A stretch of DNA of 64,000 bases, taken from assembly GCA_902533295.1 (NCBI GenBank), contig CACALG010000001.1, positions 19,048-83,047 of the forward strand. Direction: 5' to 3'. The position numbers and the translations under genes are program-made. The stretch is from an uncultured marine group III euryarchaeote. Lineage in GTDB: Archaea > Thermoplasmatota > Poseidoniia > MGIII > CG-Epi1. Position 1 is the stretch's first letter, and each line of letters opens with the position of its first letter. The notes below the pieces were generated by a model. It had not been told where the DNA came from and made no database searches. It saw nothing but the letters and a program-made list of their open reading frames with translations. Positions 1 through 47,243 of this stretch are shown piece by piece.

Positions 1-477
1 TCTAAAAATACTGAGTTTACAAAGTTAGTTAATGTACTTCAAGAGAAATTGATTCATCCTGGTAAAGTTGGGCGTGTGCATAACCTTTTCTTGCTTTCAA
101 AATCAGGTATTGTTATTAGCAACCTATCTGCTAATGATGTTGAAGAGACTGATGCAGATATATTAGGTGGAATGTTTACAGCTGTAAAGAATTTCATGGA
201 AGATGCGTTTAGTGCACGCAGTGATTCATCATTGAATGATATACAATTTGGTAATTTCCACATAACATTTGCTTCTGGAGCTTATTCAGAATTGGCAGTT
301 GTATATACAGGAATAATTAATCAAGCCTCAGAAGATGCTATTGCAGATACATTAATCGCTTTTGAATTAGAACATATGGCGGTTTTGGAAAATTGGGATG
401 GTGATCTTTCAAAATTAGCAAATTCAGCAGATTATTTGGAAAAACTTTTTTCAGATATTGATAAGGATAAAAGTTAA
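1..477 (+). CDS. 3' fragment of a larger gene (frame open to the window edge; ORF track lists 49..477 from TTG). It encodes a ~130-aa conserved cytoplasmic tail module also present at the C-terminus of the 1720-aa surface protein (16966..22128).
   Basis: No stop codon in this frame from nt 1 to 477. Segment VHNLFLLSKSGIVISNLSANDVEETDADILGGMFTAVKNF aligns with VEELYLIYKDGRLLRNVSAVEVKTDTDIMSGMLTAINDF of the giant protein tail. A later L.NW.GD segment is also shared. Confidence 0.5.
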   Translation, partial: SKNTEFTKLVNVLQEKLIHPGKVGRVHNLFLLSKSGIVISNLSANDVEETDADILGGMFTAVKNFMEDAFSARSDSSLNDIQFGNFHITFASGAYSELAVVYTGIINQASEDAIADTLIAFELEHMAVLENWDGDLSKLANSADYLEKLFSDIDKDKS

Positions 478-9239: not shown

Positions 9240-10707
<1,468 letters not shown>

Positions 10708-10989: not shown

Positions 10990-13900
10990 TTAAACCTTAA
11001 CTTGAAATTGTTGCCCAGGCTGTAATCCAGCAGGTATTGCAACAGTTACAACACGACCATCTGGTGCCTTAATTTGAATCTGCTGTCCTGGTTGTGCTCC
11101 AGCAGGTACTGCTACATTCAGAACGGTTCCTCCAGGAGCTGGTGCAGGCGGAGCTGCAGGTTCAGGGGCAGGTGGTTGTTCTGGAACTGGTGCAGGAGGT
11201 GCTGCTGCAGGTTCAGGGACTGGTGGTTGTTCTGGAACTGGTGCAGGAGGTGCTGCTGCAGGTTCAGGGACTGGTGGTTGTTCTGGAATTGGTGCAGGAG
11301 GTGCTGCTGGTGGTTGCTCAGTTATTGGAGGTGCAGCAGGCGGTTGTTCTGGTAATTCACCACCGAAAGCATCCAGTGAATCTCCAGAAGACTTAGATCT
11401 AGAATAGAAAAAGTATCCAGCTCCAGCTCCAACTAATACTACAGCTCCTGCCCCGGCTAAAACGATTGGATTAAATGATTCTGATGATCCTCCCCCTGTA
11501 ACTTCACTTTCTTTGAGTGTTCCTGAAACAGCTATTTTTACGATTTCAGAATCATCATTTAGAGCATCCTGTGGGCCCAATGCAGGTATTACACTATCTC
11601 TGTTAATTCTAACTTTTAGAGTTAGTTCACCATCATAAGGATCTGGTAATATATGTATTATTTGAACTTCAAGTGAACCAAAACCATCTATTGTAAAGTT
11701 TCCATCATTACCAGGATAAGTATCATCGTCCAAAGTGACTACAGAACCAAATTCTAACAATTCAAGAGTTCCACTAGCTGAAGCTCCCCCTTCGTTTGCC
11801 AAAAATATTTTTAGAGTAACCTCATCTCCTTCGCCAGCATTCATAGGAATTGCCATGAGACTTGTGATTGCGAGACTTGGTGGAGTGGAAATTTCCACTC
11901 TATTATTTGTATCAGAGAAAATAAGTTCCTCTGAATCCCAAAATTGCTCTCCACTATTTTTAGCATTGATATCTCTGATTGATAACTCAAATGTCCAGAA
12001 GCCTGTAAAATCAGAATTTCCACCAGATAGGAAAGAAACTGAAGGATAATTCTCATTAAAAGTGATTATTGTCTCTTCATTAGCAGGTAATTCTATGGAA
12101 CCATAACTGTCAACAATACCTGCAAAATTAACTTGGAGGTCTTTTCCAGATTTTGTAAGGCTAATTTCAGCATTTGCAGTTACATCAAAAGAACCTTCAT
12201 TCATTACATGGATTTTTGCATAAGCAATTGAACCATCACTAAATGAGACAAGTTCATTGCCATTCTCATCCTCCCAAACAATCTGAGTAACTATCAAATT
12301 AGGCAATTTTTTAATATCAATATCAACTTCTTCATCAAACAGTACACCTTCTTCAGAATCTTCTAACATTATATACAATTTTTCTACATTAGCAGTAGGT
12401 GTGATCTCTCCTTGGAAAGTTTTTGTCTCATCTACATCAACTTTTGTTTGAGGCTCAATAGTTATGATATTGTCTTCATCATCACTATCATCCCAATACA
12501 AAGTAGTTGTAATCTCTCCATATTTTTCACCATCATTCTCAATTTCTAAACTCCATGTATTCGCTATTCCTTCAACAAGCATATCTCCAAATTCAATATT
12601 GTAAGTAATATCGGGAGATGCAGATGAAACCAATATTGATTGTGAAACACTATCTTCGGCACCCTGACTACTGTCTTCTGGTAAAGAATCTACAATTTCT
12701 GCAGTTATTGTGTGTTCTCCCTCAGGTATATCTCTCCAGGTTGTAGTCACTGTTTTAGATTCCCCTCCTGTTACTCCATCTATATTAGCTGTAGCAATCA
12801 AATCCCCTCCATTTCTGAATTCTACGGTTACTCTTGCATCACCTTCCCCGTCATTTGATATGACTGCTGAAATAATTACATCATTACCTTCCACTAATTC
12901 TCCGGAAAATGATAGATCATCTATTGATAAATCTGCATCAGTAGTCAAGATATTTAGATCAGTAAGTTTTACTCTTCCAGGAGTTTCAGAATTTAATTTT
13001 AGTATTGCTTCAGCTTCCAAATCATCACTATTCTCTATCACTGCATTAAGTGCACTGACTAGCCCATTTGTACTGACGTGAATCACGGCATCATATTCAA
13101 TACTCAATTCACTAAAACCTACAGTACCTTTAGATGAACTACCCACAGTCATTACAATTTCAGTCATTTCTACACCATATTCATCAACAATAGTGTCACC
13201 ATTGTCTATTGCATCTTGTAATGCTTCTTGTAGGGCATTTTTCAAAGATTTTATTCCACCGGATTCACCCCATGTTTGCGGAGAATTTTCACTGTTTAAT
13301 TCACCAGCCCATTCCCAATCATTATTATTTGTAATTTTAATGTATGGATCCTCTGGGTAATCATCACTAAGAGTGCTTCTTACATAGATATTTTTGTCCG
13401 TATCCTCGCCACCAGAAATATCTGTTTCTTCAGTAAATGCAAAGTATGTTTTATCTCCAACTACCATATCCATGCGGTGATATTTTGCAACTAGTTGCTC
13501 ATTGTCATAATCAGTAATCTCGAAGCTGTCAGACCATGAACCTCCATCATCCTGGGTAAAAGCGAAATAGTAATCATACGAGCCTCCGGAAGCATATTGA
13601 TATGAAATATATGTAAAACCAGAACCACTAGCAATACTTGGTAATGCAAGCGTAGTACTAGTATCGGTATCTATTGCAATTGTAACATCGTTCCATGTTT
13701 CTCCATTGTCATTGGATACTGCCCAAACAATATCATAATCACTTGAACCATCTCCATCATAATCTCCACTGTCTACCCAAGCTACATACAATTTTGATCC
13801 TTCAGCACTAATAACGGGAGTATATGAGTAATAAGCAGTTGTTCCTTCATTTAAATAGACTAAATCAGCCCAGGAACTTCCATCAGTACTATATGTGTAA

Positions 13901-16197
13901 TACAAAGATTCACCATATGATGAATCACTCCAAACTAAATGGAATTTTCCTTCATTATATAATATTTCAGGCATATAATTTAGGCCAGTTGTGTCTCCAC
14001 TTACCAGGATAGCATCATCCCATGAGCCACCACCATTAGTTGAACTGACTGTGTAAATATCATATGTATACGTATTTGTCCATGAAGCAACAATATTATT
14101 ATCATCATCTGATGTAATAGTTAAACCATATTTTACTCCCGTGTTTCCACTATCTATTTTTTCAGGTGATGTCCAATCTTTACCATTATTTGTTGATTTT
14201 GTGTAGTAAATTGAGGATACACCAGTATATCCGTTATAATCTGTCCACGCCACATGTACATCATCTCCAGATGCAGTGATATCGGCTCTATATTGTAATG
14301 TTGTTGAAGAATAATCTAAATCTGTAGCATGATCATCATCAAAATTAGAGAGAACACTAAGTTCTTCCCATGATTCTCCACCATCATCCGATCTTGTGAA
14401 ATATACATCACCATCTCTTGTAGACTGATCACAACCGTTTGTGTCATCTTCCTGATCTAAATCACCATTATCAAGATAAACAAGATACAAATAATCATTA
14501 GAGTAAGCGATACTTGGACTACCAGAGTCTGCCTCATAATAATGTTCGGAAATATCCTCTATATCAGACCATGTAGAACCATCATTACTACTAACAGAAT
14601 AAACTATATCTTGGTCGTTTGAAGCACCACTTCCATCATATTCATCTGACCAAACTACAAGAACTTCATCAGAATTTGCAGTGATAGTGGGTGATGCTCT
14701 AAACTCATTCACATCGCCATTACTAATTCCGTCAACATTAACTGGTGAATTCCATGAACTTCCTGAATTCGCACTCCGTACAGACATTATTTTACGTGGA
14801 GAATTAATATCGTCGATATCCATCCATGTCATATAGAAATTATTGCTCCCATCATTGTCAGATCCTAAAAATGAAAAACTGGATCCATCTGCTGCTTGAA
14901 TCACATTTTCAGAACCAAAACTTGTGCCAGAATTAGATGATGTTTTAGATTTTATTGCATAACCATCTCCTGTAAGTTCAAGCCATCCAATAATAACATT
15001 AGATCCTTGTGCAGAAATTGTTGTTTCAGTGACAGTCTCATCTGAACTTATAGTGCCTGGCGAGCCAAAAGTTTCGCCTCCATCTGTAGAACGTGCATAT
15101 TCTGCTGCATAGTAAGATTGAGATTCATAGTATTGTTCCCAGCTGATGTGTACATTGTTTCCGCTAAGGGCTATTTGAGCACCAATACTACTTGAACTAT
15201 CTGCATCTGAAATTAATATTTCATCGTCCCAAGATTGCCCTAAATCATCTGATTTTTGATAATAGATGTGGTATTCATCATTACTACTCTCTTTGAGAGC
15301 AGACCAAACAATATGAATGGTCCCATCACTACTTACAGCTCCATCGTAATCATAGATAATGTAATGCGAACTACCTGGTTCTATTTGCTGTCCAGTAGAC
15401 CATGTTTCTCCCTCATCATCACTATAGGAAGCTTCAATGACTTCACCACCTGTGTCTGATATCCAGGCAATAACGGCATGATCATCATTTGCATGAATGA
15501 GAACATCGCTAAGAATAGCGCTTGTTTCAGCTCCATTTGTAGCAATAAGTACTATATCATCCCAATTACCATCATAATATCTAAACTTAACAGAATCAAT
15601 AGTTGTATCTCTATCGGTCAAGTCTCCATCATCAATCCATGCTACATAGTAATCATCATCTAGCATAGATACTACTGGTGCACTCGAAGTAGAACCGCCA
15701 TTTGTGCCTATTGAGGCTTTATTATAGTCATTTAATTCACCAGATCCATAAGGTAAACCAGTTATTTTGATAGAGGCCTCATTGATTGTAGTATTCGTAG
15801 GAAGATATAGTGATACCTCTTCTTCACCACTGCCTGCAAACCTTGCGGATGCACCTTTAGCATTACTAGAAAATTTTTCCTGATAGCCTAAAGCCCCATA
15901 TCCAGTTCCATCATATTTCCATTCGTAATTTTTAACACCTAATGATAACCCTTCAGGATATGAACCATCACTATCAGGCATACCTGAAAGGCCAATATTA
16001 GCTTCTAAAACTTCTGTAGCAGGAAATTTAACAGAAACACTAGAATCCTCATTTTCACCATCTAAAGTAACTGTCTTTTCATCACTGCCATTACCTTCTT
16101 TGTAATAGGTTGTTGAGGTTTCCCCAAATACAGATGAAGTACTACTGAGCAAGAGAAGTGTCACGGCGAAAGCCACGACTTTGTTTTCAAACATCAT
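10990..16197 (-). CDS. Giant (1735 aa) secreted surface protein: signal peptide, ~12 BNR/Asp-box (S-x-D-x-G-x-T-W) repeats, single C-terminal TM anchor, Pro-rich cytoplasmic tail
   Basis: N-terminal MMFENKVVAFAVTLLLLSSTSSVFG. Asp-boxes include SDDEGETW, SDDLGQSW, STDGGETF, SANSGSSW, SNDGSTW, SDDGGESW, STNNGKDW, STNGGGSW, STDGSSW, SNDNGETW, TQDDGGSW. TM segment IVLAGAGAVVLVGAGAGYFFY, then a PEQPPAAPPAP repeat tail. Confidence 0.8.
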   Translation of the reverse strand: MMFENKVVAFAVTLLLLSSTSSVFGETSTTYYKEGNGSDEKTVTLDGENEDSSVSVKFPATEVLEANIGLSGMPDSDGSYPEGLSLGVKNYEWKYDGTGYGALGYQEKFSSNAKGASARFAGSGEEEVSLYLPTNTTINEASIKITGLPYGSGELNDYNKASIGTNGGSTSSAPVVSMLDDDYYVAWIDDGDLTDRDTTIDSVKFRYYDGNWDDIVLIATNGAETSAILSDVLIHANDDHAVIAWISDTGGEVIEASYSDDEGETWSTGQQIEPGSSHYIIYDYDGAVSSDGTIHIVWSALKESSNDEYHIYYQKSDDLGQSWDDEILISDADSSSSIGAQIALSGNNVHISWEQYYESQSYYAAEYARSTDGGETFGSPGTISSDETVTETTISAQGSNVIIGWLELTGDGYAIKSKTSSNSGTSFGSENVIQAADGSSFSFLGSDNDGSNNFYMTWMDIDDINSPRKIMSVRSANSGSSWNSPVNVDGISNGDVNEFRASPTITANSDEVLVVWSDEYDGSGASNDQDIVYSVSSNDGSTWSDIEDISEHYYEADSGSPSIAYSNDYLYLVYLDNGDLDQEDDTNGCDQSTRDGDVYFTRSDDGGESWEELSVLSNFDDDHATDLDYSSTTLQYRADITASGDDVHVAWTDYNGYTGVSSIYYTKSTNNGKDWTSPEKIDSGNTGVKYGLTITSDDDNNIVASWTNTYTYDIYTVSSTNGGGSWDDAILVSGDTTGLNYMPEILYNEGKFHLVWSDSSYGESLYYTYSTDGSSWADLVYLNEGTTAYYSYTPVISAEGSKLYVAWVDSGDYDGDGSSDYDIVWAVSNDNGETWNDVTIAIDTDTSTTLALPSIASGSGFTYISYQYASGGSYDYYFAFTQDDGGSWSDSFEITDYDNEQLVAKYHRMDMVVGDKTYFAFTEETDISGGEDTDKNIYVRSTLSDDYPEDPYIKITNNNDWEWAGELNSENSPQTWGESGGIKSLKNALQEALQDAIDNGDTIVDEYGVEMTEIVMTVGSSSKGTVGFSELSIEYDAVIHVSTNGLVSALNAVIENSDDLEAEAILKLNSETPGRVKLTDLNILTTDADLSIDDLSFSGELVEGNDVIISAVISNDGEGDARVTVEFRNGGDLIATANIDGVTGGESKTVTTTWRDIPEGEHTITAEIVDSLPEDSSQGAEDSVSQSILVSSASPDITYNIEFGDMLVEGIANTWSLEIENDGEKYGEITTTLYWDDSDDEDNIITIEPQTKVDVDETKTFQGEITPTANVEKLYIMLEDSEEGVLFDEEVDIDIKKLPNLIVTQIVWEDENGNELVSFSDGSIAYAKIHVMNEGSFDVTANAEISLTKSGKDLQVNFAGIVDSYGSIELPANEETIITFNENYPSVSFLSGGNSDFTGFWTFELSIRDINAKNSGEQFWDSEELIFSDTNNRVEISTPPSLAITSLMAIPMNAGEGDEVTLKIFLANEGGASASGTLELLEFGSVVTLDDDTYPGNDGNFTIDGFGSLEVQIIHILPDPYDGELTLKVRINRDSVIPALGPQDALNDDSEIVKIAVSGTLKESEVTGGGSSESFNPIVLAGAGAVVLVGAGAGYFFYSRSKSSGDSLDAFGGELPEQPPAAPPITEQPPAAPPAPIPEQPPVPEPAAAPPAPVPEQPPVPEPAAAPPAPVPEQPPAPEPAAPPAPAPGGTVLNVAVPAGAQPGQQIQIKAPDGRVVTVAIPAGLQPGQQFQVKV
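11120..11335. repeat. 51-bp tandem repeat (~4 copies) encoding a 17-aa Pro/Ala-rich unit (APPAPVPEQPPVPEPAA) in the cytoplasmic tail of the BNR protein
   Basis: Unit ggtggttgttctggaactggtgcaggaggtgctgctgcaggttcagggact recurs with period 51 at 11172, 11223 and 11274, with degenerate copies upstream. Confidence 0.8.
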
Positions 16198-16248: not shown

Positions 16249-16986
16249 ATGACTGAACAATACCACATGAATTCCCATGAAGGCACATATACTAGGGAAT
16301 TTGAGGCTAAAGTAGAGGCTACATTCCCAGGCATCATCGAACTAGATAAGACTGCATTCTATCCATTGGGAGGGGGCCAACCCTCAGATATTGGAACAAT
16401 AACTTGGAATGAAGGAGATGCAAATGTTACTGATGTGAGGAAAAAAAATCGAATTAGGCACATTGTAGAAGGAGATTTACCAGAAGTTGGAGATTCCATA
16501 AAAGGTAATCTTGACTGGTCACGAAGATATTCACATATGAGAATGCATACTTCTCAACATTTAGTTTCTGCTGTAGTGAATGAAATATATGGTTCAGATA
16601 CCGTAGGAAATCAGATAGGAAATGAGAAGTCTAGAATAGATTTTAAGCCTTTAAAAATAAACCAAACTGAGCTTAATGAAGTAGAGGACAAAGTCAATGA
16701 TTACATATCTAAAGACTTGAAAGTTACTATATCTGAGGAATTACGGTCCAATTTAGAAAATAATCCAGATATCCGTTCAAGTATGTCTAGTGGTCTTTGG
16801 AAAATGTTACCGAAAAGTGTTACAGAATTAAGAGTAATAACCATAGGTGATATCGATGTTTGTCCATGCGCAGGCACTCATGTAAAAAGCTTAAAGGAAA
16901 TAGGTAATGTTTCTTTTATTAAAAGAGATAATAAGGGTTCTGAAAAATTAAGATTAACATATAATCTAGGCGATATCGACTCTTGA
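16249..16986 (+). CDS. alaX: AlaX-M type Ala-tRNA(Ala) editing protein (alanyl-tRNA synthetase editing-domain homolog)
   Basis: HxxxH (HTSQH) and CxxxH (CPCAGTH) zinc motifs of the AlaRS/ThrRS second additional domain; 245 aa. Confidence 0.75.
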   Translation: MTEQYHMNSHEGTYTREFEAKVEATFPGIIELDKTAFYPLGGGQPSDIGTITWNEGDANVTDVRKKNRIRHIVEGDLPEVGDSIKGNLDWSRRYSHMRMHTSQHLVSAVVNEIYGSDTVGNQIGNEKSRIDFKPLKINQTELNEVEDKVNDYISKDLKVTISEELRSNLENNPDIRSSMSSGLWKMLPKSVTELRVITIGDIDVCPCAGTHVKSLKEIGNVSFIKRDNKGSEKLRLTYNLGDIDS

Positions 16987-19900
16987 ATTTGTAAGGCCCT
17001 CTCTGTCCTTTTGTTCATACATCATTTTAATTTCTACAGAAGTTGCAGCATTACTTTTTTGTTGCATTTTTAGTTTAAATTGTACTTCGTTATATGAAGA
17101 TATATCACCCACAATAAACGAGTTATCTGAGAATGAATAATATACATCTGGATCTATACCTACTAATCCTAAGATGCTACTATTGAATTCTGGACTTATT
17201 TTACAACTACTAATAGTTTCAGATGAATAATTACTGAGATTTACGTTCAAAGTTATATTTGTACCGAGTTTTTCGTATGATGATGTAATAACAATTTCTT
17301 TTTCAGTGAAGTAATTGTCAACCATTTCTCTTGTAGATGCAATTGTTTCATCAATTATTGGGTTCAGATAAATTTTTACCTGCTTTACACTCTCGGCATC
17401 TCCATTCCAATTTGCTAGGGTTGGATTAATTGTTTCTATAGCTCTAACGGCATTAATCAGCTTCCCTTTGAACATATTATCTATTTCTCCATAAATTACA
17501 GCAGCAAGATAGGAATGTTCTCCTCTCTGTAGAATGATTTTATTATTACCATAGTCTATGGAACCCAGATCTCCTTCAGTTTGAAATGAGTCTTGAACAA
17601 AATCATTGATTGCTGTGAGCATCCCGCTCATGATATCTGTATCAGTTTTAACTTCAACAGCACTAACATTTCTAAGAAGCCTTCCATCTTTGTAAATTAA
17701 ATATAATTCTTCAACTTTATACTTAGCAATAGGTTTTGATTCAATAATAGATACATTTTCATCTAATTCTTCTTTCCTAGATCGGTATAGTAAAACACCA
17801 CCAAACATTAAGAAAAGAAGACTTATACCTATAGTAGCAGGTAAAATTTCTTTCATTCCAAATTGATCAGTTTCTGTACCTGAGGAACTATATAATTTGA
17901 CTACTTCTTCCATACTTACTGTTTCATTATTAGAATTGCTAATGTGACCGAATTCATCTTCTATTGTGATTCTATAAAAATAATCTCTGTCTGGACTTGG
18001 ATTCTTATGAATCCATTCATAATAACCTTGTTTACAGGAAGTTTCCATACCAACTCCTATTATTTCTTGTGTGAACCATCCACTATCTGAAGCAGGTAAT
18101 TCATCAGCTACCATTTGTACTTTACAAATAGCGGCATCTTCAGGAATAACAAAACCTAAAACCAATTCTGTAGCATTAGTATGCGATATTGCAACATTTG
18201 TAGCTTTCTGAGGGTCCTCTGTAAATACTTCAAAAGTTAAATGAACTCCTGAATAATCAATTTTTATGTTGTTATTACCTGTAATATCCTCAGTTGGTAC
18301 AAAACCTCCATTTGAAGTTCCACCAAATTGAATAGTCTTATTGATTATATCTAAATAATATTCATCTACTAACAATTTATTTTTGTTCATTCCTCTAACT
18401 AATGCTTTTTCATATATTCCATCTAAATCATTATCTACACTAACATTAAACCAATGGATATCATTAATTGCTGGAATATATTTCAAATTGAAACTTTGAT
18501 CATATTGCCCATTGGAACTGAAATATTCAGTAGTATCTAGTGGATTCTCAAGATTGCCTGCAAGATCACGACTTTCAGCATACAGGAAATATCGTGTATT
18601 ATCTTGCAAGTCCTGTAATTTAATTTTATCATCAGAGATATCATGAGGTAATAAATACCAAGTTAATAGATCATTACCTTTCTCTATAGTCTGTATTGCA
18701 ATATATATCTTATAATCTAGATTTAGATTATCTGTATCTATGAAGATTTCTAGATAATCATATCCCCATTTTTGAGGTACATTTGAGAAAGAAATGGTAT
18801 CTACTTTCGATGCATAATTCATTATTATATCATATTCTTCTTTATCCTCACTATTTCCGGCATAATCACTAGCCAGAATTTTAAATGCATAATGACCTAA
18901 TTCATCAAATTCATAAATATAGTGCGTGTCTCCATAAATATTTATTGAATCCAGAGCTGTCCAAGTAACTGAATTAGGATCTAAATTAGCATTTGTAAAA
19001 TTAGAATAGGAAACCTCTAGAGTATTATACGCAATATCATCTGCACTATTCTTCCACGATAAATCTATTTGACTATTGCCTATGAAATAATAATCCTCTT
19101 CAAAATTCAAAAGTTCGGTGGAAGGTATGGATGTATCAATCTTAACTTGATACTCGTAATTATTCTTATTCTCTGTGTTTCCATAAATATCTCTAGCTAA
19201 TGATCTAAACCGATATTCCTTACCATCTTCGCCAGTAAACAATACAATTGATTCTGTAAACGTGCCATATTCTTCCCATTGGGCAAATTTATCATTTACT
19301 ATATACTCAATAATATATTCTTTGAAATCATTATCATCATTCAAAAGAGATATTTGTAACTCAATAGATTCTGAATTAATTAATCCAGTTCCGGGAATTA
19401 TCTCTGATTGTGGTGATGTTGTATCCAATAATGCTAAAAGTGTGTGATTATAGGATAAATTTTTGTATATTTCTACCATAATGTCATTATTATAATAAAT
19501 AATTCTTATGGGATTATAATTAATTTCATTTTGATCGGCAGCTTTGCTAATTACATTTATCATATAATAATCGGAAAAACCATAGTTATCAGTTTGTGAA
19601 TCAACCAGTTTACTTCCAAAAGAATTTTCGATATCAAAACCATGCTCTCTTGAACCAGTGCCCCGCTCATCAGCTATATTAATTTGCAAATTGTAGCGGA
19701 TCAAATAATCAGTATCACGACAATTAAAATCATTGTTTTGTAAAGTAGAATCACTGTCAATTAAGTCCAAACAAAAATCTCCTTCTGAGAATATATTATT
19801 ATCTATTGATATAGTACTATTAAATGAATAAATAGCTTTTTCAAAATCGTTAAAGACATTGTTTAAAATATTTATATCTGATCTATAAGAGCTTACTGAT

Positions 19901-22128
19901 TGTGTATTATTCGTTAATATATTATTTGAAATTCTTCCTTCACTATTATTTGCAGTTATAGCTATTTCCGAAAAATTAATAATATTGTCTTCTAAGTCAA
20001 AATCTGCAAGAACGACAGTTATAGATTCTCTAAAATTCGTTATTATATTATCACTAACTTCGACTTCACCTTCCTGCGAAAAAATACCTACTGCAGCAAC
20101 TTTTTGTAAATAAAGAACATCACATCTATCATGTGTGCATAATCCGGTTACATTATTATTAACTATTTTACTATATGTCCTGTTACTAAGAATACCATAA
20201 TCATTTACATGCAATATATTATCTTCAATAAGTATAGGAAACGTACTATCCTCAAATCCTCCTACTTCGATACCCACTGCCGAACTTAATGTATTATTTT
20301 TAATTATAGTTTTTGGAATATAATATGCATAAATTCCTGATAATTGTGATTCAGGACTCATGTTTGTTTGAACTGTATTATTTGCAATATATCCTTCTTC
20401 AACATCTCTGAACATTATGCCAGCACCATCGATAGAATGAACAAGATTATTTGTTACATGTATATTATCAATTGTAAATGCTGAACCAAACTGAGTATAT
20501 GCAGATATTCCATTATATTTTATATTTTTGAGTGTGTTATTAGCGACAATACCATTTGATATGTCGCCAAAACCATTATCATATATCCAAATTCCTATAG
20601 ACGCATTATCAATATAATTATCCACTATAGTAAAATTTTTGTAGAAATTCCAAACCGTTATTGCTCTTGCTGATGTATTAGTAATATAATTTGAAATTAT
20701 ATGATTATCAGTTCCTACATCATTATATACATTTTCAAAATCAAGCGCTATTGGAAAGTCATTATCATTGATGGTATTATTTATTATATAATTTCCAGAA
20801 GGTGATATACCTCCTTCAGGCCAACCCCAAAGTCCTATAGCTTGCCATCCTATTTCAAAATTATTATTTCTTATAGTATTATTGTTCTGAAATGAATTAA
20901 TAAAAATAGCAATTGTGTAATTTTCAAAGTAATTATTTTCGATTAAATGACCTCCACCATAATATTCATCTGTATCAAAATCCCAGAACCAGAAAATCAT
21001 ACAACTATGCCCCCAATAGGGTTGTTTAGACCCGCAATTTATGAATGTATTATTACTGTATTCATTTCTATTTCCTGCACGATCCATAAGATTGTGCCAA
21101 TATACGCCAGAAACATTGAATATGTTGCGGCTAATTATATTGTCATCTGTAGCTTGTAGAGACATATCATGTATTGTATTATTTAGAAATTGGTTATCAA
21201 TTATTGTATGATTACTGCCTTGAGTTATAGTAAGCGTACCTCTGCCTCCCTGTCCATTATCCTTGTAAATATAATCTCTAAAGATGTTACCACTAATTAG
21301 ATTATAATTCCCATAGGAAATAGTTACACCTAATGTACCGTTAATGAAAGTATTATTTTGTATTAAGGCGTTCTCTCCTGAGACAAACAAGTCATAGAAT
21401 ATGTAACTATTATAAATCGTGTTATTAATAAATCTAAAATTATCAGTATAAGCACTAATTATTCCAATCATATCAAATGTGGAATTAGTTATGTAAGATC
21501 CAGCTCCAGTAAATCTTAATGCCTTTACATACTCAAAATCAGAATTCTCAATAATTACCCTAGTATTAGGAATTCCTGAGCCTGGCTGATTATTTACTAA
21601 TCTGCCTACTTGAACAGTATAATCTAACCTCTCTGTGTAATTCCCTTTACCAATTATATTAGATTTAATAACGGAACGATCATTACTAGTTGTCGGATTC
21701 AAATCATAATCTGTAACAATTAGTACAGAATTCTCATTTAAATCAAGACAATTAGCAGTTATTTCACTATTCTTTTGAATAGAATCAAGTATTAATTCAG
21801 AATTAATTATGGTCAGTGTACTGTATAATGATATATTGTCACCATGTGAATCTTGTTCATGAAATACTGTAGAATTAATCCATCTGGTTTCTCCTCTAAT
21901 TTCAATGAAACCTTTTGATGATAGAGAAACGTTTTCAAGTTTCAAAGTCTTACCAAAATTAACGACAATATCTTTGACTGAGACGTCCTCATCCCAAACA
22001 TGCGTGTCTTGAGTGATAATCCAATCCTGACCCTCTTGGGGTGCATTTCCATTTGAACCTGCTGAAGCATTTCCAGTACTGATTACTATCGCAGTAATTG
22101 CGATTAAAAGAAATGCTGTTTTCTTCAT
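16966..22128 (-). CDS. Giant (1720 aa) secreted surface protein: signal peptide, right-handed parallel beta-helix (PbH1/NosD-like) repeat region, beta-sandwich domains, single TM, ~280-aa cytoplasmic domain
   Basis: Signal peptide MKKTAFLLIAITAIVISTGNASA. Many N-N-T/I-x-N beta-helix rungs (IQNNTFINGT, ISGNIF, IIDNQFLNNT, ITNSTFD...). TM segment ATIGISLLFLMFGGVLLY near aa 1400. The cytoplasmic domain is homologous to ORF 1..477. Confidence 0.8.
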   Translation of the reverse strand: MKKTAFLLIAITAIVISTGNASAGSNGNAPQEGQDWIITQDTHVWDEDVSVKDIVVNFGKTLKLENVSLSSKGFIEIRGETRWINSTVFHEQDSHGDNISLYSTLTIINSELILDSIQKNSEITANCLDLNENSVLIVTDYDLNPTTSNDRSVIKSNIIGKGNYTERLDYTVQVGRLVNNQPGSGIPNTRVIIENSDFEYVKALRFTGAGSYITNSTFDMIGIISAYTDNFRFINNTIYNSYIFYDLFVSGENALIQNNTFINGTLGVTISYGNYNLISGNIFRDYIYKDNGQGGRGTLTITQGSNHTIIDNQFLNNTIHDMSLQATDDNIISRNIFNVSGVYWHNLMDRAGNRNEYSNNTFINCGSKQPYWGHSCMIFWFWDFDTDEYYGGGHLIENNYFENYTIAIFINSFQNNNTIRNNNFEIGWQAIGLWGWPEGGISPSGNYIINNTINDNDFPIALDFENVYNDVGTDNHIISNYITNTSARAITVWNFYKNFTIVDNYIDNASIGIWIYDNGFGDISNGIVANNTLKNIKYNGISAYTQFGSAFTIDNIHVTNNLVHSIDGAGIMFRDVEEGYIANNTVQTNMSPESQLSGIYAYYIPKTIIKNNTLSSAVGIEVGGFEDSTFPILIEDNILHVNDYGILSNRTYSKIVNNNVTGLCTHDRCDVLYLQKVAAVGIFSQEGEVEVSDNIITNFRESITVVLADFDLEDNIINFSEIAITANNSEGRISNNILTNNTQSVSSYRSDINILNNVFNDFEKAIYSFNSTISIDNNIFSEGDFCLDLIDSDSTLQNNDFNCRDTDYLIRYNLQINIADERGTGSREHGFDIENSFGSKLVDSQTDNYGFSDYYMINVISKAADQNEINYNPIRIIYYNNDIMVEIYKNLSYNHTLLALLDTTSPQSEIIPGTGLINSESIELQISLLNDDNDFKEYIIEYIVNDKFAQWEEYGTFTESIVLFTGEDGKEYRFRSLARDIYGNTENKNNYEYQVKIDTSIPSTELLNFEEDYYFIGNSQIDLSWKNSADDIAYNTLEVSYSNFTNANLDPNSVTWTALDSINIYGDTHYIYEFDELGHYAFKILASDYAGNSEDKEEYDIIMNYASKVDTISFSNVPQKWGYDYLEIFIDTDNLNLDYKIYIAIQTIEKGNDLLTWYLLPHDISDDKIKLQDLQDNTRYFLYAESRDLAGNLENPLDTTEYFSSNGQYDQSFNLKYIPAINDIHWFNVSVDNDLDGIYEKALVRGMNKNKLLVDEYYLDIINKTIQFGGTSNGGFVPTEDITGNNNIKIDYSGVHLTFEVFTEDPQKATNVAISHTNATELVLGFVIPEDAAICKVQMVADELPASDSGWFTQEIIGVGMETSCKQGYYEWIHKNPSPDRDYFYRITIEDEFGHISNSNNETVSMEEVVKLYSSSGTETDQFGMKEILPATIGISLLFLMFGGVLLYRSRKEELDENVSIIESKPIAKYKVEELYLIYKDGRLLRNVSAVEVKTDTDIMSGMLTAINDFVQDSFQTEGDLGSIDYGNNKIILQRGEHSYLAAVIYGEIDNMFKGKLINAVRAIETINPTLANWNGDAESVKQVKIYLNPIIDETIASTREMVDNYFTEKEIVITSSYEKLGTNITLNVNLSNYSSETISSCKISPEFNSSILGLVGIDPDVYYSFSDNSFIVGDISSYNEVQFKLKMQQKSNAATSVEIKMMYEQKDREGLTNSRVDIA

Positions 22129-44333: not shown

Positions 44334-47243
44334 TCAACCGAATACGCTTAAACCTGGTGAATCAACCATTTTCTCTAAGGTATTGCTTATGCCGTGGTCT
44401 TGACCAAGAACTTCTTGAGCTTTTAGCATTAAACATTTTAGCTCATTTCTTTCCAATCCTTCCAATGCAGGCATTATATTGGATTTAATTACATCCTCTA
44501 ATGCTCTATCTAAATCATATTGCCCTCGAGAATTAAAGACAGTCAACATTGAATCTATAATTACTGCAGGACCAATCTTTCTATAAGTTCTAACACCTCT
44601 TGCAATTTCATCATCTCTAGATTGAGGTAACTCTTCTTCCTCCAAGAAATTCATAAATTTATTGAATGCTTTGAACATTGTCCCATCATCATCATAAAAG
44701 TCAAACATTTCTTTGGCATACCAATCCTCCTCTTCACTGTCCTCAGGCCTATCAGGTGCAATTCCCAACTTATTCAGTTTATTGAACACAAATATAGGCA
44801 TACGTCTGTACTCATCATCTCTATCAGGAAGACCAATTTCAACGAAAGCAAATCTTCTCATTAAAGCGTGACCCACATTGAAAAGAGTATTCTTATCTTG
44901 AGTATTCATAGTTCCAATTATTCTGAATTCTGGTGGCATCATAAACGGAGCCCCGCCAGTCTCTTTTGCTGTAAGAAGTGCTTGCTTGTCCCTGTACTCA
45001 AACACCGTAAATAATTTACCAAAAGCTTCATCGATATTTGCTCTATTAAACTCATCGATTACTAAATAATGAGGTTTGCCATCCTCTTGCATTGTTTTTT
45101 CACAACTCTTTGCAGCATCTGCAACATAACCATCTTTGAAAAAATAACCTCCTGAATCATCTGGTGAGATACCACCAATAACTTCGAAATTAGACCATTC
45201 TGCATTTGCAGTTACAATGGTGTAATTAGGAATAGGACTGCCGTCTTTTCCCTCTTTGACTCCACATATTTGACTCAGCAAAAGATTAGCTAATGCTGTT
45301 TTACCAGTACCTGGATCTCCATACAACATTATGTTTCTACCAGATTTAAGGTGTGTTACTGTCTGATTAATAGTATCTTCAGTCGTTGAATAATATTTTG
45401 ATAATTCTTCATAGTCAACATTGTAATCGACTTTCATTGCTTTTCGAATCTTTGGAGATTCAGCTAATTCTTCTTTCAAATCCTTTTCTAAATCATCTAA
45501 GTGAGAAAGATCAGCTCCATAATTTTCATCCTCTGTTGGCTTGATGTCTATTGTTGCTTCAGGAAATTCTGAAAGAAGCCTATCCATTGCATCTTCTAAA
45601 CTAATTTCTTTAGGTGTTGATGATGATGGAGTTTCGTCAGATTTTGGCCCATCTTCTGCCTCAAAAGAAGAATCGAAGGGATCTGAGGAAGGGGGACTAG
45701 ATAATTGCATTTCCATCATTTTATCTCTGAATTTCTCTGCACCAAATTGCCAACCATACCATATAGCACCTCCAGAAACTATGAGTGGAATTAGAAACAT
45801 AGCCCATTCTTCACTCGATTCAGGAGATGAAATATCTGAACCTGAAAGTAAAGCAGGAGCAATCATTGTTGCGAATAAAGTGCCTATTCCTGCTACAAAT
45901 AATCCAAAATAAGCAAACCCTTCCATGCTTTCTTCGGATTTCCTTTTCCGGTAAAATAAGAATACACCCAAAAATGTAATAACCATAAACAAAACAGTAA
46001 GAATCCAGTCTCCCTGTTCAAAATAAAAATTAGCCCCATTACGTAATAAATTCCATAACAATACAATGTACTGGAATCCAAGACCAAACAATATGAAGAA
46101 GAAATATTTTGCTTCTTCCATATCTTTCAAACGAATTGTTTGAAGAATATAGGCTGCAATACCTATCAAAAGAGCTAAAACACCAAGCATTAAAACTAGC
46201 ATTTCACCCGCTTGAAGATTAAGCATCACTGTTGCAGTTCCCATTGGTGGGTCTGCGGATGCACAAGCAGATTGAAGATCTGGGATTGTACTATCGTATG
46301 ATCCAACTGCGTCACATGAAGCCCATGGTCCACGCACCCAATTATGGTGTATAGATCCAAATACTAATGAACCGGCTCCCACAAAGGAATAAATTGTACT
46401 CAGTGGAGCCTCTCCAATGTCTTTTCCAGTTACTGCATACAAAAATACGATATAAGATACAATAATTATTATTAGAGAAGACGTCGCTCCTAGAGATGAA
46501 TAAAATCCATCTAGTGCACCTTTTGGATATGTCTCATTAATGAATGACTCACCTTCTGTAAGCTTTTCATCATTTGCGCTAGAATATCCACCGCCTACAT
46601 AAACATAAATAATAAGCATCACAAAAACACACAGAATTAATGGAGCCATGATATTACTATCATTAATCCGTCTTGCTTGTATCATAATTAATAGAGCAAG
46701 GAGCGTAAGCAAACCAAAAACAGACTGAAATTGATGAGTATCTACTTTGAAATCGGATGTATCAAAATTATCTCCTTCACCGACACGACCCCCCGGTCCA
46801 TTATTCAAAACCAACGGACATCCATCTTTATCTCCACGAACATCTATATCCGACCAACCTGGACACACAAGTGGGTTATTATCATCAGTCCAACCAAGTA
46901 AAGTCAACTGCGCTTTTTCTTCATCAGTTAACTCTTGTTCTATCTCGCTATTTGACTCTGGAGCCTCATCATTGTAATGTGGGATGTCTCCTGTTGTATA
47001 ATACAAAATCAAACCTAAGAGGGCAACAGCAATCAAAAATTGTAAAGCTGGCAAGTAAAAACTAGGTTTAGTTTTGATTAAAGGTGGTTTAGAAGTTGCA
47101 GCAGGCTTACCTTCAGATTTAGAAACTGGTGTCTCCACTTGAGAAGGACCTGAATCCTTAGCTCCAGACAGATTTACACCGCAAATATTACAGAATGGTG
47201 CATTATCTTCAACATCTACAGCACAGACTGGGCACTTTTTCAT
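44334..47243 (-). CDS. Fusion protein (969 aa): N-terminal double zinc ribbon, polytopic membrane domain (~8 TM), acidic linker, C-terminal McrB-family AAA+ GTPase domain
   Basis: CPVCAVDVEDNAPFCNICG. Multiple hydrophobic helices at aa ~60-480. Walker A LYGDPGTGKTALA, Walker B YLVIDEFNRANIDEAFGKLFTVFE (McrB DEINRAN...FGE), GTMNTQDKN (McrB N-T-x-D), ALMRRF. Confidence 0.6.
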   Translation of the reverse strand: MKKCPVCAVDVEDNAPFCNICGVNLSGAKDSGPSQVETPVSKSEGKPAATSKPPLIKTKPSFYLPALQFLIAVALLGLILYYTTGDIPHYNDEAPESNSEIEQELTDEEKAQLTLLGWTDDNNPLVCPGWSDIDVRGDKDGCPLVLNNGPGGRVGEGDNFDTSDFKVDTHQFQSVFGLLTLLALLIMIQARRINDSNIMAPLILCVFVMLIIYVYVGGGYSSANDEKLTEGESFINETYPKGALDGFYSSLGATSSLIIIIVSYIVFLYAVTGKDIGEAPLSTIYSFVGAGSLVFGSIHHNWVRGPWASCDAVGSYDSTIPDLQSACASADPPMGTATVMLNLQAGEMLVLMLGVLALLIGIAAYILQTIRLKDMEEAKYFFFILFGLGFQYIVLLWNLLRNGANFYFEQGDWILTVLFMVITFLGVFLFYRKRKSEESMEGFAYFGLFVAGIGTLFATMIAPALLSGSDISSPESSEEWAMFLIPLIVSGGAIWYGWQFGAEKFRDKMMEMQLSSPPSSDPFDSSFEAEDGPKSDETPSSSTPKEISLEDAMDRLLSEFPEATIDIKPTEDENYGADLSHLDDLEKDLKEELAESPKIRKAMKVDYNVDYEELSKYYSTTEDTINQTVTHLKSGRNIMLYGDPGTGKTALANLLLSQICGVKEGKDGSPIPNYTIVTANAEWSNFEVIGGISPDDSGGYFFKDGYVADAAKSCEKTMQEDGKPHYLVIDEFNRANIDEAFGKLFTVFEYRDKQALLTAKETGGAPFMMPPEFRIIGTMNTQDKNTLFNVGHALMRRFAFVEIGLPDRDDEYRRMPIFVFNKLNKLGIAPDRPEDSEEEDWYAKEMFDFYDDDGTMFKAFNKFMNFLEEEELPQSRDDEIARGVRTYRKIGPAVIIDSMLTVFNSRGQYDLDRALEDVIKSNIMPALEGLERNELKCLMLKAQEVLGQDHGISNTLEKMVDSPGLSVFG

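Follow-up and report, generated by a model that had tools for sequence, protein, structure and literature searches.

A predicted Roadblock/longin-like module shared by a response regulator and the cytoplasmic tail of a giant surface protein in Marine Group III archaea

We analyzed a 64,000-nucleotide stretch of DNA, referred to here as the window, from an uncultured Marine Group III (MGIII) euryarchaeote (GenBank assembly GCA_902533295.1, contig CACALG010000001.1, positions 19,048 to 83,047). The window encodes two copies of one protein module of ~140 aa: one in an open reading frame (ORF) cut by the window edge, and one in the cytoplasmic tail of a 1720-aa surface protein. We favor, at a probability of roughly 0.55, the reading that this module is a membrane-proximal, Roadblock-type docking platform which links a phosphorelay to giant surface proteins. 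Behind this reading stand the homology between the two copies, the orthologues that identify the edge ORF as a response regulator, the module's cytoplasmic topology and predicted fold, the linkage of its family to GTPase and two-component genes, and the adjacency of regulator and giant genes in related genomes.

Two copies of one module in the window

The giant gene (16966..22128, minus strand) encodes a type-I membrane protein of 1720 aa, as judged from its ORF, Pfam matches and orthologues. A signal-peptide-like N-terminus, MKKTAFLLIAITAIVISTGNASAG (22057..22128, minus strand), was read from the sequence and is followed by a beta-helix/NosD-like ectodomain (Pfam Beta_helix at 3.9e-16, NosD at 2.8e-8), an Ig-like region and a single transmembrane (TM) helix, ILPATIGISLLFLMFGGVLLY (aa 1428-1448; 17785..17847, minus strand), behind which stands the positively charged stretch RSRKEE. 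The earlier note on this DNA had correctly placed a cytoplasmic domain after the TM helix, and this tail measures 272 aa (nt 16969-17784, minus strand); the right-hand coordinate it gave, 17800, does not hold, the nearest in-frame start being at 17802. Within the tail, also on the minus strand, lie the module (aa 1460-1596; 17341..17751), recognized by the signature D.DI.SGMLTA..DFV.DSF ... YG ... WNGD, a conserved helical linker, ASTREMVDNYFTEK (17299..17340), in whose alignment M160, D162 and Y164 are invariant or nearly so, and a C-terminal beta-sandwich of eight strands (aa 1611-1719; 16972..17298), recognized by a structure model and a marginal Pfam Cohesin match. The module is cytoplasmic, as indicated by the positive-inside rule, by its fusion to a receiver (REC) domain and by neighboring genes for cytosolic GTPases, both described below.

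By BLASTP, the product of 1..474 (plus strand) aligns with the giant's tail at 70.5 bits (E=8e-20), with 48 identities over 152 aa (32%) and 7 gaps. When the tail segment was shuffled 300 times, scores averaged 12.4 bits (sd 4.9) and reached at most 24.3, against an observed 73.6 bits. Because the match lies far above the shuffles, the module is a true homologous domain, and the two copies are homologous. The similarity claimed in the earlier note is thus genuine, and the strings quoted there occur in both products. In the edge fragment the module covers about aa 14-155 (nt ~40-465, plus strand), as located by sequence and profile comparison and by orthologues. No copy beyond these two was found in the window by tblastn or hidden Markov model (HMM) search.

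The frame at 1..477 (plus strand) is indeed open at the window edge, as had been noted, and ends in a stop codon at its other end. When the 158-aa fragment was used as a query, 47 close homologues were found, every one of them short, and those that reach further upstream bear a receiver domain (Response_reg, PF00072). The homologue P0041 is 92% identical to the fragment; P0083 begins MKILAVDDD... and covers the whole Pfam REC model at 1.8e-25; P0095, of 318 aa, carries REC at 9-119 and the module at 161-317. In locus L011, which comes from a single-cell genome of Marine Group III, the orthologue is encoded by an undamaged ORF of 316 aa, is 91% identical over the part that lies in the window, and retains the receiver's acidic pocket, phospho-acceptor Asp, Thr and Lys; the corresponding residues, DDD...FSDINMP...MLTS...LKP, can be read in both L011 and P0083. 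The REC domain itself would lie beyond the window, and in the orthologues it is matched at E values of 1e-21 to 1e-25. Pfam found REC and no other match in P0095, P0122 and the L011 regulator. The orthologues measure about 316 aa (intact ORFs of 316-318 aa in L011, L003 and P0095) and are without a TM segment.

Judged from these orthologues, the edge ORF is the C-terminal output domain of a soluble response regulator of about 316 aa, REC plus module, of whose gene the window holds the last 158 codons and the stop. Since the near-identical orthologues are intact ORFs of about 316 aa, the window would start some 158 codons, the REC domain and linker, into the gene; this upstream part was reconstructed from the orthologous loci rather than read from the contig, an exact look-up of the 1720-aa protein having matched no record. 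The earlier note had instead considered 1..477 to be probably the tail of another large envelope protein, with the rest of its gene lying upstream. The open frame agrees with that proposal, as does the existence of paralogous giants with the same tail in related genomes. However, all 47 close homologues are short, those reaching upstream carry REC, and the edge ORF differs from the giants' tails in that its orthologues lack both a TM helix ahead of the module and a beta-sandwich behind it. An upstream signal peptide and TM helix are ruled out by the soluble, REC-bearing orthologues, which show the small soluble protein that the earlier note had itself named as speaking against its proposal, and we regard a second giant at this position as very improbable.

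Predicted fold and extent of the module family

Structure prediction was carried out with AlphaFold2 for both copies. The edge fragment was modeled at a mean pLDDT of 80.2 and a pTM of 0.79, with elements in the order alpha-beta-beta-alpha-beta-beta-beta-alpha, of which alpha2 and alpha3 are long, and two short C-terminal helices. This is the Roadblock-type alpha-beta-beta-alpha-beta-beta-beta(-alpha) sandwich, as a prediction rather than a solved structure. In a Foldseek search of the PDB (83 matches at E<=0.001), the best 50 matches were all Roadblock/LC7 or longin proteins (E 4e-5 to 4e-4, probability 1.0, TM-scores 0.4-0.65), among them LAMTOR2/MP1, MglB, AP sigma, TRAPP subunits, a Streptomyces Roadblock protein (3kye) and an Asgard Roadblock protein (7yh1). 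The earlier note had suggested a module possibly Roadblock/LC7-like in size, and its predicted fold is of that kind. Sequence-profile searches of the PDB with the module returned chance helical matches only.

An alpha/beta sandwich of this kind superficially resembles the PAS, GAF and profilin-type domains, and the module could accordingly be read as a small-molecule sensor reporting a cytoplasmic metabolite; in some relatives the regulator also adjoins a fusion of an ammonium transporter with a kinase. However, no PAS or GAF protein occurs among the best 50 Foldseek matches, and the conserved residues of the module fall on a helix surface and in loops (G, WxGD) with no obvious pocket. Additionally, a domain that stands at the output end of a REC protein is more readily understood as an effector. 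We therefore consider a sensor highly unlikely.

The model of the giant's tail (pLDDT 77.6) shows the same module, the conserved linker helix and the eight-stranded beta-sandwich, the last at a pLDDT of about 90. A module of longin/Roadblock type followed by a beta-sandwich recalls the clathrin-adaptor mu and sigma chains (longin) together with the gamma-adaptin ear (GAE), and AP mu chains were indeed the top Foldseek matches of the whole tail (E 2.5e-8). The global TM-scores of these matches are just 0.2-0.3, however, at an rmsd above 20 A. Searched alone, the sandwich matched gamma-adaptin ear/GAE structures (1gyw, 1iu1 and 3mnm; target-normalized TM-scores (TMt) of 0.59-0.65, rmsd ~3 A) and also cohesins (TMt ~0.41), as befits a generic Ig-like fold; there is no sequence similarity to the adaptors and no sign of common descent. 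The Pfam Cohesin model (PF00963) scored 26.5 bits on the tail alone, against a cut-off of 24.1, 24.8 bits on the whole protein and 18.8 bits on the L011 paralogue, and a cytoplasmic location is atypical for a cohesin.

To define the extent of the family, a module profile was run against a library of 1.84 billion proteins, with matches counted as clusters at 50% identity. The cluster representatives matched at E<=1e-3 numbered 5,297, and 3,540 of them also passed a cut-off of E<=1e-10. Both window copies keep the family signature, FLI..DGRLI, D.DI.SGMLTA.QDFV.DSF, L..I.YG, LA.V..G and WDGD. Pfam and NCBIfam scans yielded no model covering the module (DUF7280 at E=0.12, and weak Robl_LC7 matches given below), and source annotations of the family members read "hypothetical protein" only.

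Architectures were counted over the best 141 new matches of the profile. In 77 of these a TM helix lies at most 70 aa ahead of the module, while 23 are multipass proteins with the module behind the last helix and 8 carry a TM helix just behind it. A further 41 have no TM segment, REC fusions among them, and 24 of the 141 contain two or three modules. A length of at least 1000 aa was found in 58, of which 36 also have the preceding TM helix, with lengths of up to 4,911 aa. The large members carry ectodomains of beta-helix, CARDB, FG-GAP plus PKD, BNR plus PKD, DUF11 or cadherin-like type. Thus, the module is usually membrane-held, just inside the TM helix of large surface or multipass proteins. 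The earlier note had called for a survey of the genome's large TM-anchored proteins for this tail; across the protein library, hundreds of otherwise unrelated large TM-anchored proteins carry the module.

Some members depart from this pattern. P0087, P0100, P0102, P0108-P0110, P0113, P0115, P0117 and P0120-P0125 are apparently soluble, measure 1,100-2,400 aa and carry the module two or three times in tandem. They also bear CARDB domains and, at the C-terminus, DUF5915, which is known otherwise from the C-termini of isoleucyl-tRNA synthetases. Zinc-ribbon proteins with the module occur as well (P0174). A 969-aa protein of the window (44334-47243, minus strand) has an N-terminal zinc-ribbon, MKKCPVCAVDVEDNAPFCNICG, and a P-loop at aa 642, and carries no module.

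Compared with Roadblock/LC7 proteins (PF03259; MglB, LAMTOR2/MP1 and the dynein light chain Roadblock) and longins, the module is alike in predicted fold and, at the level of the family, in its coupling to Ras-like GTPases, and it would resemble Ragulator in being a membrane-proximal platform. It differs from Roadblock/LC7 in lacking a significant sequence or profile match, in its own signature (D.DI.SGMLTA.QDFV.DSF, WDGD) and in its extra C-terminal helices. Additionally, the module is mostly tethered covalently to a TM helix, whereas the canonical domain is a free protein of ~100-130 aa.

Gene neighborhoods in Marine Group III and across the family

Orthologues of the tail come from metagenome-assembled and single-cell genomes of Poseidoniia/Marine Group III. 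The true orthologues of the window's giant, from seven genomes, sit in a conserved locus, SRP54 - giant - AlaX - BNR-giant, and their tails are 54-83% identical, against 33-72% for the ectodomains. A second, paralogous set of beta-helix giants, whose tails are 66-70% identical to that of the window's giant, is found in relatives between TRM5 and the regulator gene, with two in L011 (both intact, of 1622 and 1645 aa), two in L003, and one each in L001, L002 and L012. A paralogous family of giant surface proteins with a common tail, as the earlier note had proposed, is supported by these one or two further giants in related genomes.

In L011 the gene order is TRM5 > giant 1 > giant 2 > < RR < Hpt > HK, where RR is the response regulator and HK a histidine kinase, and L001-L003 are similar. 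In these loci the regulator is adjoined by Hpt (PF01627, 3e-7) and membrane kinases with HisKA and HATPase_c domains; the matching phosphorelay region of the present contig falls beyond the window edge. L001-L003 contain, near Hpt and the regulator, a fusion of an ammonium transporter with a kinase (Amt-HisKA-HATPase_c). The kinase genes lie at 6961-9211 in L001 and 19179-20951 in L003, where they are fused to Amt, and at 15192-16514 in L011, whose kinase has a core 72% identical to the Amt-fused one and a different multi-TM sensor. A 2018 census found two-component proteins to be nearly absent from Thermoplasmata (PMC5847659).

Between TRM5 and the regulator gene lies a variable island. No giant occupies it in the window, where the paralogous giants are absent and the regulator's stop codon abuts TRM5 (474-477); one or two paralogous beta-helix giants of ~1630 aa occupy it in relatives (L011 3969-13828; L003; L001/L002). 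This variable number suggests that surface-protein genes are gained and lost, or recombined, at a fixed site. Two of the contigs compared, L012 (NZOY01000037.1, 'Flavobacteriaceae bacterium') and L005 (CAYTYA010000104.1, 'uncultured bacterium'), have clear MGIII gene content and synteny, and their bacterial labels are probably binning or labeling errors in the public records.

Across the wider family, metagenome contigs were scanned with the back-translated motif GMLTA[IV]QDF. This gave 120 loci, and with six others 126, of which 124 encode the module. Counting was restricted to the 76 module genes that are complete at the 3' end and have 500 nt or more of sequence downstream; 48 of these are followed on the same strand, within 200 nt, by a gene for a GTPase of 160-180 aa, and 53 within 3 kb. 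By Pfam, these GTPases belong to the Ras family (E 1e-26 to 1e-35). Archaeal cases exist: in L018-L020, three contigs of a euryarchaeote, a 203-aa TM plus module protein is followed after 28-44 nt by the gene for a 275-aa Ras/Arf/Roc GTPase. Typically, a gene for a helical protein comes first in the locus, followed by one for a module-TM-(BON)-OmpA protein, then one for a Ras-family GTPase and one for a histidine kinase or cyclase; genes for histidine kinases or cyclases share operon-like clusters with the module gene. Additionally, 33 ORFs with REC domains were found in 27 of the 126 loci, ~0.5-2.4 kb from the module gene. A signalling role for the module, which the earlier note had listed among several possibilities, fits both the REC fusion and these GTPase and two-component neighborhoods.

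The module loci match the published "Group 1 Rup" neighborhood (PMC4316618). Wuichet and Sogaard-Andersen described in 2014 an 'Unc' protein of this system with a conserved unknown domain, a TM helix and OmpA, and no Pfam match; the paper assigned no fold to the domain and did not note giant surface proteins (PMC4316618). Bacterial relatives of the module fit 'Unc' in their flanking genes, which encode a helical or coiled-coil protein, a histidine kinase or cyclase, and a GTPase of the Ras family; L024, L045 and L048 have the Unc architecture, and their unknown domain matches the module profile. The window proteins, in contrast, share with 'Unc' the domain alone: their order is TM-module or REC-module, they have no OmpA and no adjacent rup gene, and their host is an archaeon.

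Similar wiring of receiver or kinase signalling to a Roadblock protein and a GTPase is described for RomR/MglC/MglB of Myxococcus and for the actinobacterial conservon, with its CvnA kinase, CvnB Roadblock protein and CvnD GTPase (PMC4316618, PMC4719450, PMC12719032). As described there, these components are separate polypeptides with canonical PF03259 domains, whereas here REC is fused to a Roadblock-like domain and no GTPase was seen in the window. An archaeal parallel is NitrOD3, which Galperin et al. (2018, PMC5847659) reported, from HHpred, as a Roadblock/LC7 relative that serves as the output domain in response regulators of thaumarchaea. It likewise places a Roadblock/LC7-related output domain on a REC protein, but in a different lineage, with no sequence relation detected to the module, and it was not described on surface-protein tails.

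Neighboring genes in the window are housekeeping genes (Trm5/TYW2, AP endonuclease, NAD kinase, AlaX and SRP54). Convergent genes overlap at their 3' ends: the AlaX-like ORF (16249..16986, plus strand) overlaps the last 7 codons of the giant by 21 nt (16966-16986), and the stop codons of the regulator and TRM5 overlap by 4 nt (474-477), a packing so tight that it leaves no room for terminators. The window also contains a complete archaeal 16S rRNA gene (9240-10707, minus strand; Rfam SSU_rRNA_archaea, 1504 bits) with no adjacent 23S gene, which accounts for the raised GC content at 8-12 kb (0.435, compared with ~0.34 outside this stretch) and for a spurious 102-aa ORF (9459..9767) that is 96-100% conserved in related loci. 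A second giant (10990-16197, minus strand), of 1735 aa, has BNR/sialidase-like repeats, CARDB and a different cytoplasmic tail. This was rejected as a carrier of the module, none being found by Pfam, tblastn or HMM search. After the TM helix its tail has a proline-rich tandem repeat, PEQPPVPEPAAAPPAPV, present three times, and its C-terminus is an element of ~45 aa with an internal repeat, ..PAGAQPGQQIQIKAPDGRVVTV / IPAGLQPGQQFQVKV, that is 71-83% conserved across genomes against 42-77% elsewhere in the protein.

A proposed docking platform between phosphorelay and surface proteins

Roadblock and longin domains form dimers on which small GTPases are bound and regulated, as in MglB-MglA, Ragulator-Rag and TRAPP-Rab. 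For the module, dimerization, the choice of partner in this lineage and the direction in which signals pass are inferred. If it behaves as Roadblock proteins do, it would form homodimers or heterodimers on the cytoplasmic side of the membrane, and these would serve as platforms for docking a signalling partner, which in many other lineages would be the Ras-family small GTPase encoded directly downstream. In this MGIII archaeon, phosphorylation of REC might control the pairing of the regulator's module with the modules of the tails, or its competition with them for the same partner. The phosphorelay would thereby be coupled to the state, clustering or turnover of giant surface proteins, and signalling in the reverse direction may also occur. 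This mechanism is supported by the repeated adjacency of the regulator to module-tailed giants and by the tail being better conserved than the ectodomain.

A different account would center on the GTPase. Each copy of the module would then be an MglB-like regulator or docking site, a platform for GTPase activation or nucleotide exchange, serving a 'Rup' GTPase encoded elsewhere in the MGIII genome, and the link between regulator and giant would be indirect. The Ras-family GTPase genes directly downstream of 48 of the 76 module genes, the archaeal cases L018-L020 and the agreement of the neighborhoods with the Group 1 Rup system all speak for it. The most conserved segment of the family, additionally, sits on helix alpha2. 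In the MglA-MglB complex, alpha2 of MglB is part of the GTPase-contacting face. However, motif and HMM searches of the window and of ~200 kb from related MGIII loci found no Ras-like GTPase gene, and none adjoins the giant TM-module proteins examined (L033, L081, L135 and L099). We hold this account to be a serious but less likely alternative.

Several results weigh against the docking platform that we favor, the lack of a GTPase in these MGIII loci among them. The Roadblock assignment finds no echo in sequence: Pfam Robl_LC7 (PF03259) matched neither window copy and, weakly, 2 of 67 family members (E>=0.06), and hhalign of the family profile against the single sequences of MglB and LAMTOR2, which were checked as identical to the PDB chains, gave probabilities of 8% and 1.7%. 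Because these comparisons are not significant, the module is not filed under Robl_LC7; it is Roadblock/LC7-longin-like by predicted fold and not a member of PF03259. The Foldseek TM-scores are moderate, and the model was built on a shallow alignment. With regard to pairing, the regulator's module is 24-32% identical to the tails, no closer than to other family members, and thus gives no sign of a specific co-evolved pair. In the window, the only module-tailed giant lies 16.5 kb from the regulator, which abuts TRM5, so that adjacency is not conserved in this genome, and since the genomes that do show it are close relatives, their evidence is not independent.

Some of these points would also fit a module without any cross-talk, a generic dimerization or oligomerization domain reused in two settings. 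Such a domain would dimerize the regulator upon phosphorylation and, independently of this, serve the giant for clustering or anchoring. As a rule, Roadblock domains are obligate dimers; the two modules of the window are old paralogues, at 32% identity, and resemble each other no more than they do the rest of the family; and the regulator and giant genes are not adjacent in the window. On the other hand, the regulator adjoins module-tailed giants in four or five related genomes, and the coupling seen across the family to GTPase and two-component genes points to partner binding beyond self-association. We judge such independent reuse to be unlikely, and retain the docking platform as the preferred reading.

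Searches of the literature on prokaryotic Rup GTPases, membrane-anchored Roadblock domains and the giant proteins of Marine Groups II and III found no description of the module. By the searchable literature and Pfam/NCBIfam, the fold assignment and the size and architectural range of the family are new, although InterPro, arCOG or ECOD may already name the domain. By the same sources, so are the occurrence of the module, with a conserved beta-sandwich, as the juxtamembrane tail of giant archaeal surface proteins, and the REC-module fusion of Marine Group III. The analysis defines a very large domain family (more than 5,000 clusters at 50% identity) for which Pfam and NCBIfam currently have no model, and gives the "conserved domain of unknown function" of the 2014 Rup GTPase systems a predicted fold and a context.

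For the archaea themselves, these results indicate that many giant proteins of uncultured marine lineages are not passive adhesins, as they carry an intracellular signalling module that is better conserved than their ectodomains. The use of the same module as a two-component output provides a testable hypothesis on how the surface is regulated or read out. Roadblock/longin GTPase platforms are central to eukaryotic trafficking and nutrient signalling, and receptor-fused, membrane-tethered versions in Thermoplasmatota and bacteria widen the prokaryotic background of such platforms. More speculatively, planktonic archaea and many other prokaryotes might possess an integrin- or receptor-like layer, in which giant proteins (beta-helix, FG-GAP/PKD, BNR or CARDB) with a Roadblock/longin-like and adaptin-ear-like tail recruit Ras-like GTPases, a module-bearing phosphorelay regulator, or both, for outside-in or inside-out control of the surface, tied in MGIII perhaps to ammonium sensing through the Amt-kinase fusion. 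We put this forward as a doubtful but possible extension; if true, such a layer would be a prokaryotic counterpart of Ragulator- and adaptor-type platforms outside the Asgard archaea.

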